From positions 4,128,001 through 4,192,000 of the forward strand of contig CM000154.2 in the NCBI GenBank assembly GCA_000004695.1: DNA of 64,000 nt. The letters are read 5' to 3'. The DNA comes from Dictyostelium discoideum. Lineage: Eukaryota. The position numbers and the translations under genes were made by a program. The first letter of the stretch is position 1; each line of letters opens with the position of its first letter. Positions 51,788 to 64,000 of the stretch are shown piece by piece. The notes under the pieces are model-generated. The model was not told where the DNA came from, did not search any database, and saw only the letters and a program-made list of their open reading frames with translations.

Positions 51788-54700
51788 ATGTTAACTCATG
51801 ATTTGACCAAAAACTTGGGACGACCCTCTTTTTTACCTAAAGAACTAACTATTAGTGATTCTCAAGTTCAAAGGTTAAAAACTCCATGTTTTGAAGAAAT
51901 TATCCGTTCATTTTTAAACAAACGTAAACCAAAGCAAAATTGGCAATTATCATTAGAGATTGAAGAAAAATTATCAAATCCTACTATACTTGATATTTTT
52001 AAAACTATAAGAACCACAGAAGAGACAATTATTTCTGATGAATCATCAAGGGATTTTTTCATATATTCACTTTTAAAAATTGATTGGTATGTTATTATTA
52101 TTATTATAACTATTACTATTATTATTATTATAGTTATTATTCTTACTATTACTGTTATTATTATTATAATTATTATTTTATATATTTACTAATACATTAA
52201 ATTAGTTGTATTAAAGGTAATTTATTTAGTTATTATTCTGAAATGGATAGAACAAATATTAAAGATATAATTATTGGAAAAGGGTTGAAAAATAATAATA
52301 ATAATATAATATTGGGAAATTCAATTTTTTTTAAAAAAATAGTTGAAGATTTTTTAACAATGGCATTCGAACGTTTTTCATGGTATTGTGAAAATAAATC
52401 AACTGATTTATTGTTTTTCATATGTGTAATGTCAGAATCAAATGAACGTTTGAAGGAATTCTTTAACAAATTTCAAGACTATCATCATCATCATAACCAA
52501 TCGAAAACAGCTGAGCATTATAAAATTTCAAAAAGTTTAAATTCTCTACCATTTTCCATTTCAAATGGAGTCATTTCAAATGGAGTCAATCCAACAATCA
52601 AAATACAATGGTTTCTTAAATTTGTTGAGTTAAATTTAAAAAATCCAATTGTCTATCAATTATTTGATTACACAATAATAAATTACCCTTTTATTTCAAA
52701 TTTAAATATTTTGGTTGGTCCTATACTATTAAATATTTTTAATAATGACAATATTAAAATATATGAGGATAATAATAATAATAATAATAATAATAATAAT
52801 AATAATAATAATAATAATAATAATAATAGTACAATTGTAGATAAATTTAATTTAACATTAGAGTTAAAATCTAAATTAGCATTTAGTGTATATAAAAGAA
52901 AGTTAGCAATATGTGCAGTAACATTACCAATTTTAGTATTACACCTTCAAAAGGATCCAATTGGATTTCTAAAGTATTATGATGAATTTATAAAATCATC
53001 ACCAGAGTCAAAATCTTTATTCAATCATTCAATTTCACTTCATTTATCAAATGATACAAAGAAAATGTTTAATTTGTTACCATATAGAAATAGAATTGAT
53101 TTAGGTTGGGAATCATTTATTGTAAATAAACTAACTACGGCTGACAAGATTAATATACTCTCAACTTATGATGAAACCTATCAAGATGTAAAAGCAATTA
53201 TAATATGTTCATTAAATGTTGAATCTTATGCATTACTATCATTAGAAAGTAAATTATCCGATCAATTCTTAATAAATGTTTTCAACCAACAATGTAGATT
53301 ACCAAATAATTATAATTTCAGTGGTGTAATAACCTCATTTTCAACCATTGAGAGGGAATATGTCAGTCGTTTAAAGAATAGCATAGAACAAGAAGCAATT
53401 AAAAAGAAACAACTTATAGTTAAACAAATTGAAATGAATAGTGAAATTTATGAAAATTACTTTCGTATTGTAAATGTAATGGTTGAAGCATTACTCAATC
53501 AAAATCCATCATTAAATTCAATTATTGAATGTGTTGGAACTGATCTAGGTGGGAGCTTGGAACAAGATAATCAATATATGGATACATTACCAAATTTAGT
53601 ACTATTTTCACATTTATTAAGAAGAATCGCTACTTCAAATTTAAATTCATCATATTTATTAAAAAAAGATTCAAAAGGTAATAATAGATTGAATTTAGAT
53701 TTATCAAATTTGGCTATGTTTTATAATTCAAAAAATTCATTTTGGCAAGAGATTAGAGGACCTTATGATAGTTTCTTAAGGGAGTTTATAAAGAATTTAT
53801 TAGCAAAATATGTAGAGATTAAATCTGATTTCAAATATTTAGATTATCATTATTTTGAATCGTTAACTATCATTCTATTAGAAATGAAAAGAAGATATAA
53901 TTGTATACCATCCGATTATCGAGTATCAAATAAACCAGTTAAAATTGTTGAATTCAAAGATTTTATAAAGAAATTTGAAGAAAAAGAATCACAATATAAT
54001 GATTTATTATTGGTTAAAGAATATTTAGAAAGAAAATTTTCATTTAATTTTAGTTCACAATTTGATAAGAATTGGAAAACTTCAAAAAGATTAAAATTAT
54101 TAAGACAATTAATTAAATCGACTAAAAGTTTATATGGTCATTATATTCAAGATGATGAAAGTATAAAGTTTTTATTACATTTTGCAATAGTTAATAAAAC
54201 TTTATTCTTTCATGCAATTTTTGATTATTATTATTTGAATTCATCAGATCAGACTAATAGTAAACAATTAAATCTTGATCAATGTTTAAAAAGTACAAGA
54301 GAATTTTTAAAAAGATTAATTGAATCAGATTCTTCAATTCAATTAAATGATATATTTAAAAAGATAACAGAAATTACTGATATTAATTATGTTAGAGAGA
54401 TTGAACCAATTTATAATTATTTTAAAGGAAATGGTGAACCATATAAAAAGGAATTGGAAGAACAAATTCAAAAATTCATTGATAATGCAACTTTCTTTTT
54501 TGGTGTTAGAAAGTATTTACCACATATTGAAAAATTCATTGAAAGTTTAGATTTCATAGTTATTACAGATTTTAATAAAAAAAAAGCAAAGTGTGAAGAG
54601 ATTATCAAGAGTGTTTTTGAAAAGAATACAACTATCGCAGGTGCAAATGATGCTTTGATTTTATTGAAATCAATAATGAAGGATATCAATTTCATTCAGT

Positions 54701-57700
54701 TACCATTTTTTTCATTAAATATTAAAGATATTATCGAATGGTTTTCATCATTCACAGATTTTAAAAATTTCAATATTCAAGTTGAGATTGCTTCAAATAA
54801 CTATAATGATTCTTATTCAGCACAGATTTTAGATTATACCTTATTTTGTAGAAATCAGTTTACAGAGTTAGTTCAATATAGTATCGATAGTACTAAAGAC
54901 GAGAAACCAAAACAAATGGAATTCTCAAAGTTTTTCGAATTAATTAATCAAATAATTCCAGTTTCAGGTTATCTTTCAGCAGTTAATAAAATCAGTAGTG
55001 CAATTAATAATTTATCAAATGTTAAAGTTTTATTTAAATCTGGTAATTTCAATGAACAAGGAACATTACAAAATGCAGAGATGGCAACTAATTCTAAAAG
55101 TAAATTCACCTCTGAAACTTATAATACTAACAACAATAGTACTAATGGTAGTAATTGGTGGGTCGTTAGTGAAAATGGTTTCGAATTGGCACAAGATAAA
55201 TTAGAGAATTCATATAGAGGTATTGATATATTTTCAAAATTCGATGATGATGATAACAATAATAGTAATAATAATAATAATAATAATAATAATAATAATA
55301 ATAATAAGAAAATAATTGATAATAAGAAAACATTTGATACTTTTAGAATCATCTTCAAATTATTTAAAAAGATTCATTCACTTCACAATGAACTCTATAA
55401 AATTTGTCATCCAAAATTTATGGCTTTACAAAGTATTCAAGTAGCTTGTGATCTTGAAACTTTAAAAAAAGAAAAAAGACATTTACGTAATTCAATTAAA
55501 GTTTGGAAAGATTTTATTTCAAGTTTACCAAAGAATTTATTATTCTTAAGAGCACCTGGTGTTTCATCATTATATAGTAAATTAAAATTAACTTTTGAAA
55601 ACAAATTTAATAATAATAATAATAATAATAATAATAATATCCAACAACAACAACAACAATTTGACTTATTTTTAAATGATTTAGTTTTAGATTTATTCCC
55701 ATCAATTAAATATTGTTTTTATGAATATCCACAAATTATAAATATGAAATTATTAAAAAATCAAATTGAATCAACTACAAATCAATTATTAAATGAAAAA
55801 ACAAATAGTAAGATTTTAATTGATGATGAAATTGTTAGTGGTTGTTTTATTGAAAAGTTTTTAAAAGAATTAATTAGAAATATTAAACAAAATTTATTAT
55901 ATATTGAAGATGATGAAGAAGAGGTTGAGGAAGAAGTTGGTGGTGTGGAGATAGGTCAATTAAAGAATCAACCAATTGGTGTGCCACCACCAAATGTTAA
56001 TAAATTCGATTTAATTAATTCTTTTGAATTGGTTAATATTGAATGTAATGATGATTTATTCAATTCATTAATGGAGTTGAATGATAGTCAATTACCACAT
56101 CCATCACAAATTTTTTATGCAAATTCATTCGATGCCGATTTCCCATTCTTTAAATGTTTGGTTGAAAAATTCTCAGAATCAATTTTCTTTTTAATTGGTA
56201 CACCAAATAAGAAAGATGAATTTATCAATTGGATGTCTGTTCATTTTAGTAATAATACAATGTCAAAGTTGGCAAAAGTTTACGTTATATCAATTGGTGA
56301 TGATACTCATACAAAAGATGTTTTCTCATTCCTTTCGCCTTATTCTGGTAAGAATAACAATATCGGTAATACAAATAATTCTTGGGAATCATTTAAAGTT
56401 TTATGGAATAAAACAAAGGTTCAAAATGGTATTGAATCATTAAATTTAGTTTCAGGTGGTACTGGTACTGGTAAAAGTCATTTCATTAAATCAGAAATTA
56501 AAGCAAAGAATGGTGGTGGTGGTGGTAGAAATTTAGAGATTGAAAAACCAAATGAACATACAGTATTGGTTAGACCAGGATTTATCATTGATCCATTAAT
56601 AAAGAAAATCAAAGCATTAAAAGATGCAACCAATTTCTTTATTCATTTCAATATTTCATGTTATGCCGATTTTCAAGAGTTTTCACAATTCTTTTATCCT
56701 TTAATTTCATTTGGTTATATCTTTGGTAAACAAGATGGTGAACTATGTAGTATACCAACTGGTTGTTTATTAACAATCTATGTTGAATTGGGTGATCCAT
56801 TAGGTTCAGATTATAGAAAGAATGAAAATAATACAATTCAATCAATAGAGTATTTAAAATATGTCAAAACTTCAATACCTTTAATCTTTCATTTATCAGA
56901 TACTGAAATGAGTAAAAAGTATCTATTGGCAGAATGGGTCTCTGGTGAAGCTGAATGGCGTGCTTTTGCATTCAGTAGTGATCATTGTTCATTCTATCAA
57001 AAAGCAACCGTTGAAATGGGTAAAGATGTTAAATTATCTCAATATTTGGATTATATTAACCAAATGTTTAAAAGAAATTTCCCAACTATTGATATCAATT
57101 ATCTTTTTGATAAAACAAAGTATCCATTTAGAAAGAATTTCTTTTTAATGTTAAATGAACGTTTGAAATTTTTAGAAACTTACTATGAATTCTATTTAGT
57201 AATTTGTGATCACGATTTTCAAAATTCAAATACTGTCCTTCAAGATAGTCTTTTAACCTATCAAGAATTATATGAGGTTTTCTTAGTAGAATGTGCTCAA
57301 TTAGCAAATCCTGAATTTTCACAACAAAAAACAATTTGGGAAAAACCACCATTAATTACAAATAGATCAGTTGTAAAAGTTACAAAAGATCGTTCATCAT
57401 CATCGTCATCATCATATAGTGGTGGTGGTAGTAGTATTAATAATGATAATATTTCATCAAAACAAGTTGATTTTATTGATCTCTCAAACAATAATGGTTT
57501 AACTAAAAGTGGTAGCAAGATTAGTAATTATAATAATCAAATCGATAGATTAATAGAATCAAAGATAAAGAAATTACCAACTTATATAACTTTAGATAAA
57601 GCAAATGAAAATATTAGATTATTTAATACAAAAATTGCATCATCATTTGGTATTCAATCTCGTACCAATATTGTTACCGATTTAGCAAATCAATATGGTT

Positions 57701-63700: not shown

Positions 63701-64000
63701 TATTAGATATTTTAGATCCTATTGCAACCTTGTCAAGAGAAAACTTTTCACAATTTTTAAGAGTTTTACAAGATCCAAAGAGAAATAATAAAATTGAAAT
63801 CCCAATTGGTTGGATTTGTTCTGTAATTGGTGAATATATTAATTTAGAGGATAATTATCAATTCCTTAGAGAAAAAGTTAATGAAATTTGTTGTAAATCT
63901 TGCGAAGAATATTATTTCCCACCATTAGTTTCAAAACCAACCGGTTTAAGTTTTAAATTTTTAGGTATCACTGAAAAATCATACATTCATAGTTTCAAAT
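51788..64000 (+). CDS. giant multi-P-loop AAA+ ATPase (dynein-related AAA_5 / midasin / RNF213-like class), 5' partial: more than 4000 codons in window, 3' end beyond the window
   Basis: Exon 1 is 51788..52086 (…LLKID + TG) with donor GTATGT. The intron has a TACTAAT branch-like motif at 52187; AG at 52204-52205 (alternative AG at 52228-52229). Exon 2 runs from 52206 in one open frame to position 64000. The tool lists no plus ORF there because no stop is reached; frame checked at 57781 and 64000. Walker A motifs: GGTGTGKS (56464..56487), GDTGVGKT (57781..57804), GPPGCSKT (59521..59544). Walker B-like MVVFIDEYNT followed by FWIGAMNP (~58570..58705), as in dynein-family AAA_5 modules. Poly-Gln tracts at ~58101..58170 and 61361..61478. 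Confidence 0.8.
61361..61478 (+). repeat. pure (CAA)39 microsatellite encoding poly-Gln inside the giant ATPase gene
   Basis: Uninterrupted caa repeats, with a shorter (CAA)9 at 61313..61339 just upstream. The antisense frames give the spurious poly-Val and poly-Cys ORFs in the tool output. Confidence 0.95.

Follow-up and report, generated by a model that had tools for sequence, protein, structure and literature searches.

A stretch of 64,000 nucleotides of Dictyostelium discoideum DNA (the window) contains most of a real, uncharacterised giant gene whose predicted product is, by sequence homology, a member of the RNF213 superfamily. RNF213 (mysterin), a human immune and stroke-risk protein, is a vertebrate giant AAA+/E3 ubiquitin ligase. 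The product is likely a dynein-class AAA+ ring of this superfamily, combining an N-terminal arm that may recognise targets with a C-terminal effector that would be switched by ATP.

Gene model and homology to RNF213

An earlier note on this DNA described a frame of more than 4000 residues that stays open from 52206 up to the end of the window, and this holds: removal of a single intron joins both frames without a stop, and frame and splice reconstruction yields a product of 4,031 stop-free codons within the window (Table 1). The stop-free frame itself spans 52201–63999 and continues to the window end, in local DNA of ~22–27% G+C, a composition at which stop codons are very frequent. Translating naively from 52206 gives the wrong frame, because that base completes a split codon. 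The locus is 99.9% identical in GCA_054883475.1, whose annotation gives the gene product 5,786 residues and a start that agrees with ours within 1 nt; therefore, ~1,755 residues lie past the window end, and the window holds the 5' 70% of the gene, the first 4,031 of 5,786 codons. One neighbouring ORF matches the D. discoideum AX4 Xaa-Pro aminopeptidase with 100% identity.

Table 1. Features of the giant gene and its 5' flank, in window positions
Feature	Position	Strand	Description and basis
(ATATAAA)7 repeat	51735..51783	+	Directly 5' of start codon, in AT-rich 5' flank; Tandem Repeats Finder
Exon 1	51788..52086	+	ATG 51788; 299 nt = 99 codons + 2 bases; sequence and splice reconstruction
N-terminal arm	51788..54303	+	Residues 1 to ~800; lineage-specific, poly-Asn tracts
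Intron	52087..52205	+	119 nt, GTATGT...TAG; TTA/TTATTA repeats
Exon 2	52206..64000	+	Open up to window end; 3' side of gene truncated
Dictyostelid-only conserved region	54304..56403	+	Residues ~800-1500; phmmer
First P-loop module	56455..56478	+	Walker A GGTGTGKS, AAA2-like; motif reading
AAA3 Walker A	57781..57804	+	GDTGVGKT, aligns with RNF213 GETGCGKT; motif reading
AAA3 Walker A-Walker B insertion	57805..58566	+	RNF213 alignment and relatives
(CAA)23 poly-Gln	58102..58170	+	Within AAA3 insertion; Tandem Repeats Finder
AAA3 Walker B and sensor-1	58567..58704	+	MVVFIDEYNT 58567-58596; FWIGAMNP 58681-58704
AAA4	59521..59892	+	Walker A GPPGCSKT 59521-59544; Walker B MVVHLDEAG 59737-59763; sensor-1 IIILSNK from 59845
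AAA5-like region	60139..60918	+	RNF213-homologous; FAQRDFVFFLRHL ... YPWLNRFEKY
(CAA)9 and (CAA)40 poly-Gln	61312..61479	+	(CAA)9 61312-61338; (CAA)40 61360-61479; relatives variable here
AAA6-like alpha/beta domain	61483..61893	+	AAA+ fold, no P-loop; predicted structure and fold match
Asn-rich disordered insertion	61894..62103	+	pLDDT ~30; N9 and N10 tracts
Post-ring all-helical region	62104..63999	+	AlphaFold2; ends at window edge

Homology to RNF213 is evident from a phmmer search of all solved structures, which returns RNF213 chains as its only significant matches (E 3e-29 to 3e-31; comparison structures 6TAX, 7OIK and 9JWG). The match covers AAA3 Walker B through AAA5 in two collinear stretches, and one relative, P0016, aligns with the RNF213 structures over a single 770-residue stretch (E 7e-36). 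The AAA5-like region, the third stretch aligned to RNF213 (46.5 bits, E 1e-11), is conserved in 146 of 153 family members. The earlier suggestion of an RNF213-like protein rather than a dynein or midasin thus finds support.

Nucleotide sites and architecture of the window product

The window product contains three P-loops, and none beyond these was found. The first lies at residue 1517, in line with the ~1500 preceding residues noted earlier, and the Walker A spacings of 442 and 580 residues match the ~440 and 580 given in the earlier note. Of the Walker A positions given previously, 57781 and 59521 are exact and the first is displaced by 9 nt, at 56455 instead of 56464. AAA2 of RNF213 binds ATP but has no Walker B; AAA3 and AAA4 have complete catalytic sites, and AAA1, AAA5 and AAA6 are degenerate (PMC7311170). 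As read from its motifs, the nucleotide-site pattern of the window product is identical to that of RNF213, with an AAA2-like Walker A only, followed by complete AAA3 and AAA4 sites.

Because it has a Walker A only, the first P-loop is predicted to be AAA2-like and should bind ATP without hydrolysing it. The acidic pair is absent from its Walker B strand, which reads FFIHFNIS (56635–56658; family consensus IHFxIS), and Pfam AAA_22 picks up the equivalent site in relative P0130 (E 1.6e-8). The second and third modules each have a Walker A, a Walker B (hhhhDE) and a sensor-1 Asn. The AAA3 Walker A stretch alone is not significant against RNF213 (-0.3 bits), and this P-loop is assigned to AAA3 because it is collinear with the significant RNF213 match downstream of it, where MVVFIDEYNT and FWIGAMNP align to RNF213 ILFFDEANT and IIAACNP. 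These Walker B and sensor motifs are present as previously described, although they lie past the second P-loop but ahead of the third, as part of the second module, rather than after all three. In the AAA4 Walker A, Ser replaces the second-last Gly, as in RNF213 GKPGSSKS, and Pfam AAA_7 (dynein motor P-loop region) matches this module in all ten close relatives scanned.

The unusually wide P-loop spacing is due to an insertion, family-specific and ~120–200 residues long, that separates Walker A from Walker B in AAA3; the Walker A-to-B span is ~268 residues here, 180–230 in amoebozoan relatives and ~70 in mouse RNF213. The poly-Gln tracts reported earlier as pure (CAA)23 and (CAA)39 runs are confirmed for the first, and the second has 40 units. 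The family consensus around the second tract has zero conserved residues. To judge from sequence comparison, the CAA tracts are ordinary Dictyostelium insertions, located in loops that vary between relatives.

Outside the P-loop modules, conservation is uneven. The N-terminal ~800 residues, which include an N19 tract at residue 289, have no phmmer match among the 153 family members, dictyostelid ones included, and none to solved structures; they may form a fast-evolving, target-recognising arm. Residues ~800–1500 match only dictyostelid proteins (E 1e-20 to 1e-32). From its position, this region probably comprises a linker plus a degenerate AAA1, the latter represented by the PHPSQIFYANSF block (56095–56130), which is kept in family consensus sequences. 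Structure prediction places an AAA+-fold domain without a P-loop (AAA6-like) after the AAA5-like region. The helical region beyond the ring is conserved in Amoebozoa, a choanoflagellate and Chromera (profile matches P0044, E 4e-41, and P0069, E 2e-21), and nothing significant among solved structures was matched by sequence profile or by fold.

Relatives and their C-terminal module

The family is large, unnamed and pan-eukaryotic, with 1,685 cluster representatives at E<=1e-3. For comparison, 153 members were fetched, and 20 full-length members, ten of the closest among them, were scanned with Pfam. The top matches are dictyostelid 'hypothetical proteins' of 4.2–5.8 thousand residues that are 47–53% identical in the core.

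All close relatives carry a C-terminal module of ~580 residues, found in 67 of the 153 members, with a choanoflagellate, Chromera and Picozoa among them. Because the last 1,755 residues of the Dictyostelium gene lie outside the window, the effector is read wholly from relatives; by sequence analogy with them, these residues probably carry the same module. Three observations bear on its nature. First, a D-C, an R and a second C are invariant over 15 aligned modules from very distant eukaryotes. Second, a Foldseek search with an AlphaFold2 model built from 15 sequences (pLDDT 73) gives one outstanding match (E 3.7e-3, probability 0.99), to the human RNF213 E3 module 9jwg_A, which misses the tool's 1e-3 bar and has low TM-scores of 0.25 and 0.13; the next match is at E 2.6. 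Third, although the module's sequence profile gives no direct RNF213 match among solved structures, a profile of RZ-less modules alone finds the E3 regions of the RZ-bearing members P0143 and P0149, with the second half of the module in common (E 2e-9, calculated on 153 proteins that had been selected beforehand by their AAA core). The alignment sets the relatives' invariant DCG opposite the second zinc knuckle of the RZ finger (C-x-D-C-G), not opposite the catalytic cysteine. Taken together, we infer that the relatives' module and the RNF213 E3 module are distantly related, the former lacking RING, U-box and RZ finger.

The E3 function of RNF213 is activated by ATP binding, not hydrolysis; the RZ domain houses its catalytic Cys4462/His4483 dyad, and activity is lost when this domain is deleted (PMC12075652). 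By analogy, ATP binding at AAA3/AAA4 of this single-chain ring would switch the C-terminal effector rather than drive movement, and the effector activity would most likely be a cysteine-dependent transfer reaction linked to ubiquitin, in line with a USP deubiquitinase domain in one relative and a U-box in P0143. Accessory domains vary over the family (VWA, SAM, SH3, an extra AAA), with VWA in three of ten distant members scanned with Pfam; effector functions may thus differ among members, given the VWA, SAM or SH3 domains of distant ones.

The same variability would also fit an RNF213-derived ATPase with a catalytically dead E3 module, working through its ring and helical modules as an ATP-regulated scaffold or remodeller whose output does not involve ubiquitin. 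That the close relatives lack the RZ catalytic dyad, and that their module has no direct sequence-profile match to RNF213, agrees with such a protein; however, two cysteines and an arginine invariant in 15 modules argue for a conserved chemical role and not a relic, and in one relative the module is followed by a fused USP deubiquitinase domain. We regard a dead module as unlikely.

A full RNF213 orthologue, with RING or U-box plus RZ encoded past the window and acting as a transthiolating E3 ligase exactly like RNF213, is very improbable. The AAA core is RNF213-like, the part of the gene past the window has room for these domains, and four distant members of the same match list bear an RZ finger (P0123, P0127, P0143 and P0149; Pfam PF20173, E 1e-16 to 1e-19). 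Among them, P0143 has a U-box ~500 residues before its RZ finger and matches human RNF213 at E 1e-188, E3 module included, and the P0149 cluster holds an Amorphochlora amoebiformis 'RZ-type domain-containing protein' (A0A7S0DNE9). However, Pfam detects RING, U-box or RZ in none of the 20 full-length members, ten of the closest included; a regex search of the long members yields neither RING nor U-box; a motif scan finds no RING in the 153 members, and an RZ-type motif only in the four distant ones and as a chance-like N-terminal match in P0023. At the position of the finger in RZ-bearing members, the relatives show no more than a DCG loop; the window product has no RZ finger, and no Pfam hit is recorded for the 5,786-residue product in GCA_054883475.1. 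The check for RING/E3 domains that the earlier note proposed for the next window gives no RING or RZ in the closest relatives, although their module bears a weak resemblance to the RNF213 E3 module.

Dictyostelium and many other protists could have RNF213 relatives without RZ and RING that remain active transferases, with the invariant DCG cysteine or the second invariant cysteine of the C-terminal module supplying the nucleophile. We offer this proposal as speculative and rather doubtful. If true, it would mean that RNF213-class E3 ligases have an ancestral or alternative active site, one that could serve ATP-gated, cell-autonomous defence against intracellular bacteria in a phagocytic amoeba.

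Comparison with known systems

Dynein has DHC_N1/N2 domains, an active AAA1 and, between AAA4 and AAA5, a coiled-coil stalk that bears a microtubule-binding domain; midasin (MDN1/Rea1) combines six AAA_5 protomers close to its N-terminus with an acidic linker and a MIDAS domain at its C-terminal end. The window product falls in the broad AAA+ clade of dynein heavy chain and midasin, sharing with them AAA modules concatenated in a single chain and Pfam AAA_5 and AAA_7. It differs from cytoplasmic dynein heavy chain and midasin in having no sequence match, stalk or MIDAS, and its AAA1 is not an active site: the module preceding the first P-loop has no P-loop. A divergent dynein heavy chain or midasin with unusual spacing is ruled out for practical purposes by the Pfam and solved-structure searches: although the window protein has weak Pfam AAA_5 and AAA matches, its relatives have AAA_7 and AAA_5, and dynein chains occur among the fold matches of the AAA6-like domain, those fold matches span only a generic AAA+ domain, the phmmer search of solved structures returns no dynein or midasin chain at E<=1, the protein has three P-loops only and no DHC_N1/N2, microtubule-binding or MIDAS domain, and ten close relatives scanned have no VWA/MIDAS domain.

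The dictyostelid relatives (DLAC_06181 of Tieghemostelium lacteum; PPL_06205 and PPL_03700 of Heterostelium album; SAMD00019534_056650, _045130 and _015260 of Acytostelium subglobosum) are collinear with the window product from ~residue 700 through the window end and keep the triple P-loop, with several paralogues per species and no high-identity orthologue among them. Unlike the window product, they have no counterpart to its first ~800 residues and no long CAA-encoded poly-Gln at these positions. The RZ-bearing protist and metagenomic RNF213-type proteins share its AAA3–AAA5 core (E 1e-45 to 1e-50) and differ from the dictyostelid clade in carrying the ZnF_RZ-type finger, joined in P0143 by the U-box, in place of a DCG loop only.

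Compared with RNF213 itself, the Dictyostelium protein has ~200 extra residues inserted between the Walker A and Walker B motifs of AAA3, poly-Gln and poly-Asn insertions, and an N-terminal arm, AAA1–AAA2 region and post-ring helices of no detectable similarity; its closest relatives, without RING and RZ finger, lack the Cys4462/His4483 dyad. It resembles RNF213 in its single-chain dynein-like AAA core, homologous from AAA3 Walker B to AAA5 (E 3e-31), in the nucleotide-site pattern with the same Ser-for-Gly exchange in the AAA4 Walker A, in its long N-terminal arm and, through its relatives, in a C-terminal module weakly similar to the RNF213 E3 module.

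Gene model and ATPase sites

Within the window (G+C 16–33%), a stop-to-stop scan reveals one exceptional open frame of 3,933 codons that runs off the 3’ end. Splice reconstruction adds an upstream first exon, and joining position 52086 to 52206 keeps the frame for 4,031 codons with zero stops. The earlier note had the exon open from 52206 onward; this is the correct exon start, the codon there being split by the intron, and neither stops nor introns that break the frame are found. The neighbouring genes are typical of Dictyostelium, encoding RhoGAP, RhoGEF, FNIP-repeat, B-box and SPX-EXS proteins. 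A locus in NCBI assembly GCA_054883475.1 is 99.9% identical to the window, and there the giant gene, at roughly CM142511.1:4,295,127-4,312,700, has the same ATG and a called product of 5,786 residues with no recorded Pfam match; thus ~1,755 residues (~5.3 kb) lie beyond the window. Elsewhere in the window, a 21-nt tandem array with a local G+C of 33% and strong strand skew keeps four frames open, on both strands.

Features of the window and their positions
Feature	Position	Strand	Details	Basis
Asparagine-rich ORF	6020-7372		450 residues; >40 asparagines in a row at end; no Pfam match	
ORF across 21-nt array	7498-9792	-	Gly/Glu/Asn/Gln-rich heptad-like repeats (GGENNQG...)	
21-nt tandem array	7535-9589, 9908-10057		~71 + 23 copies, 80-85% matching	
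(CAA)33	20329-20427		pure; in RhoGEF + IQ-motif ORF	
Xaa-Pro aminopeptidase ORF	29877-31334		100% identical to D. discoideum AX4 protein	
Tandemly duplicated unit	36699-41617	-	B-box zinc-finger ORF, then FNIP-repeat ORF; copies 89-95% identical (nucleotide)	
Neighbour ORF	45965-47377	-	exact match in GCA_054883475.1	
(ATATAAA)7	51735-51783		perfect; stops 4 nt short of giant gene start codon	
Exon 1	ATG 51788	+	299 nt	sequence and splice reconstruction
Intron	donor 52087, acceptor ends 52205	+	GTATGT donor, TAG acceptor	splice reconstruction
Giant open frame	52201..63999			stop-to-stop scan
P-loop 1 (AAA2-like)	56455			
P-loop 2 (AAA3)	57781			
(CAA)23	58102-58170		inside AAA3 insertion	
VVFIDEYNT to FWIGAMNP	58567-58704			
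P-loop 3 (AAA4)	59521			
(CAA)9	61312-61338			
(CAA)40	61360-61479		in a loop without conserved residues	

Three P-loops mark the ATPase region. The earlier note located the second and third correctly and misplaced the first (at 56464). Its VVFIDEYNT and FWIGAMNP motifs are present, though between the second and third P-loops instead of after all three, and its spacings of about 440 and 580 residues measure 442 and 580. On motif reading, P-loop 1 combines a good Walker A with FFIHFNIS in place of the acidic Walker B pair; the family consensus at this strand is IHFxIS. P-loops 2 and 3 each possess a Walker A, an hhhhDE Walker B and a sensor-1 Asn. The wide spacing arises mainly from enlargement of the stretch between Walker A and Walker B of AAA3, which spans ~268 residues here, 180–230 in amoebozoan relatives and ~70 in mouse RNF213. 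Of the two pure CAA runs described previously, the 23-unit count stands and the other has 40 units instead of 39; a further, nine-unit run lies nearby. A RhoGEF gene unrelated to the giant one has a 33-unit tract as well, which shows that long poly-Gln encoded by CAA is usual in this genome rather than particular to the giant gene.

Homology of the AAA core to RNF213

Pfam returns nothing above threshold for the window product except a TFIIA match, rejected as a poly-Gln artefact; AAA matches are sub-threshold. Among all solved structures, the sole significant matches are mouse and human RNF213 chains (E 3e-29 with the entire frame as query, 3e-31 with open-frame residues 1701–3000); nuclear-pore and kinesin matches reflect low complexity and were discarded. 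The RNF213 alignment consists of two significant collinear stretches and a third that is not significant alone. The first extends from the AAA3 Walker B to AAA4 and pairs (window/RNF213) FIDEYNT/FFDEANT, GAMNP/AACNP, VSFRDI/VSLRDV, GPPGCSKT/GKPGSSKS, LDEAGL/LDEVGL and AKTNR/AKMNR. The second is an AAA5-like block that includes RDFVFFLR, VVLVN..FYDVFN.Y and LNRFEK, and the third covers the AAA3 Walker A. Searches of solved structures with the N-terminal arm, the AAA1-AAA2 region, the post-ring region and the C-terminal module, as single sequences or profiles, yield no matches. A dynein or midasin identity is rejected, as neither chain type is matched among solved structures and the Pfam result also argues against it; the earlier proposal of an RNF213-like or unclassified giant ATPase is supported. 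The giant protein is very probably a member of the RNF213 superfamily that forms an AAA+ ring, with AAA2, AAA3 and AAA4 sites of the kind set out above.

When the AAA3-AAA5 region is used to query 1.84 billion cluster representatives exhaustively, 1,685 match at E<=1e-3, of which 236 reach E<=1e-30. An earlier word-indexed homologue search had recovered 8 fragments only, missing the closest full-length relatives, and a search seeded with a piece of mouse RNF213 AAA4 gave only short exon fragments. The best matches, all labelled hypothetical, are proteins of 4,200–5,800 residues with 47–53% identity from other dictyostelids: Tieghemostelium, Acytostelium (three paralogues), Heterostelium (two) and Synstelium. 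More distant matches include D. purpureum, Protostelium, Mastigamoeba, Mastigella, a choanoflagellate, Mallomonas, Chromera and Picozoa; the AAA core of RNF213 is therefore part of a large pan-eukaryotic family. The relatives are collinear with the window product, keep the triple P-loop at spacings of ~370–400 and ~480–500 residues, and have ends that imply 1,200–1,600 residues more. Conservation across the 153 family proteins fetched is graded: residues 1–800 of the window product find no match, even among dictyostelid relatives, residues 800–1500 match in dictyostelids only, and residues 2200–3150 are matched by essentially all members. Pfam domains in ten distant members (P0130, P0122, P0103, P0049, P0052, P0064, P0059, P0071, P0100 and P0099) include VWA in three, SAM in one and SH3 in one. 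Another family protein, P0020, carries an additional classical AAA plus AAA_lid_3 module close to its C-terminus.

The C-terminal module and its possible output

In 20 full-length family members, Pfam detects AAA_5 and AAA_7-type modules and finds neither a RING nor a U-box, RZ or USP domain. The relatives share a module of ~580 residues, ~1,550–2,100 residues past the AAA4 P-loop, with an invariant Asp-Cys (usually DCG), Arg and second Cys. This DCG module is present in 67 of the 153 members, across eukaryotic supergroups.

The profile of this module is negative in a direct search of solved structures, but two other lines connect it to the E3 region of RNF213. First, one Foldseek match stands out for its AlphaFold2 model (pLDDT 73): 9jwg_A, the E3 module of human RNF213 (E 3.7e-3, probability 0.99, 588 aligned columns, low TM-scores; next match E 2.6). 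Second, four distant members of the match list carry the motif CPNGH.Y..G.C...C..C...IGG..H, and Pfam confirms a ZnF_RZ-type domain in all three tested. One of these, the 3,131-residue JGI metagenome protein P0143, aligns to human RNF213 in the AAA core as well as the E3 module (E 1e-188); it has a U-box at 1876–1938, where RNF213 has its RING, and the RZ finger follows ~500 residues further on. A profile built from RZ-less modules alone matches the E3 regions of P0143 and a second family protein, P0149, at E 2e-9 in a small, pre-selected database, and in alignment the RZ finger of RZ-bearing members sits at the DCG-loop position of the RZ-less proteins. Because that database is small and pre-selected and the TM-scores of the fold match are low, homology between the C-terminal module and the RNF213 E3 module is likely but unproven. 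Equating the DCG cysteine with the RZ catalytic cysteine is unsupported; it aligns with the second zinc knuckle, in a gappy alignment that is not decisive.

An independent hint of a ubiquitin link comes from a relative (positions 1395–9815 of a locus in NCBI GCA_025450795.1, JANRHI010008487.1) with a USP/UCH deubiquitinase domain fused after the DCG module. This gene is read with a ciliate-type code, having seven TAA and three TAG codons in frame, including a TAA TAA TAA TAG run, and no TGA.

Transthiolation by RNF213 takes place at Cys4462, paired with His4483 as a dyad in the RZ domain, and is activated when the AAA core binds ATP; the RING is dispensable (PMC7311170, PMC12075652). The window protein has the same ATP-site logic, with Walker A only in P-loop 1 and complete sites at P-loops 2 and 3. 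The most economical reading is that the protein would act as an ATP-gated switch for a C-terminal effector and not as a motor. The RZ dyad is missing from close relatives, although these retain both invariant cysteines in a scaffold like that of RNF213. The output of such a switch may be a cysteine-dependent reaction related to ubiquitin, a suggestion with somewhat less than an even chance of being correct; that the module is a non-catalytic scaffold appears unlikely.

Classification and relation to RNF213

In humans, RNF213 is a major gene for stroke risk (moyamoya), and its product serves innate immunity as an E3 ligase that covers bacteria with ubiquitin. The window product shows neither of two defining features of RNF213, the RING and the RZ finger, and close relatives lack both; the giant gene is therefore kept out of RNF213 proper and classed within the RNF213 superfamily as a variant without zinc fingers. 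Public assemblies already include the gene as an unnamed protein; what is new is its classification and variant architecture. The searchable literature treats RNF213 as a vertebrate or mammalian protein (PMC7311170, PMC12075652), and no publication found there links this gene, or any protist protein, to RNF213. As a natural experiment, the family bears on what is ancestral in the RNF213 machine, and D. discoideum, a genetically tractable, knockout-friendly phagocyte, is suited to asking what the ATP-sensing ring controls. Compared with RNF213, the D. discoideum members keep the ATP-site logic and, with the C-terminus judged from relatives, apparently the E3 scaffold, probably with neither zinc finger; it is in one of these two fingers, absent from close relatives, that the catalytic cysteine of RNF213 sits.
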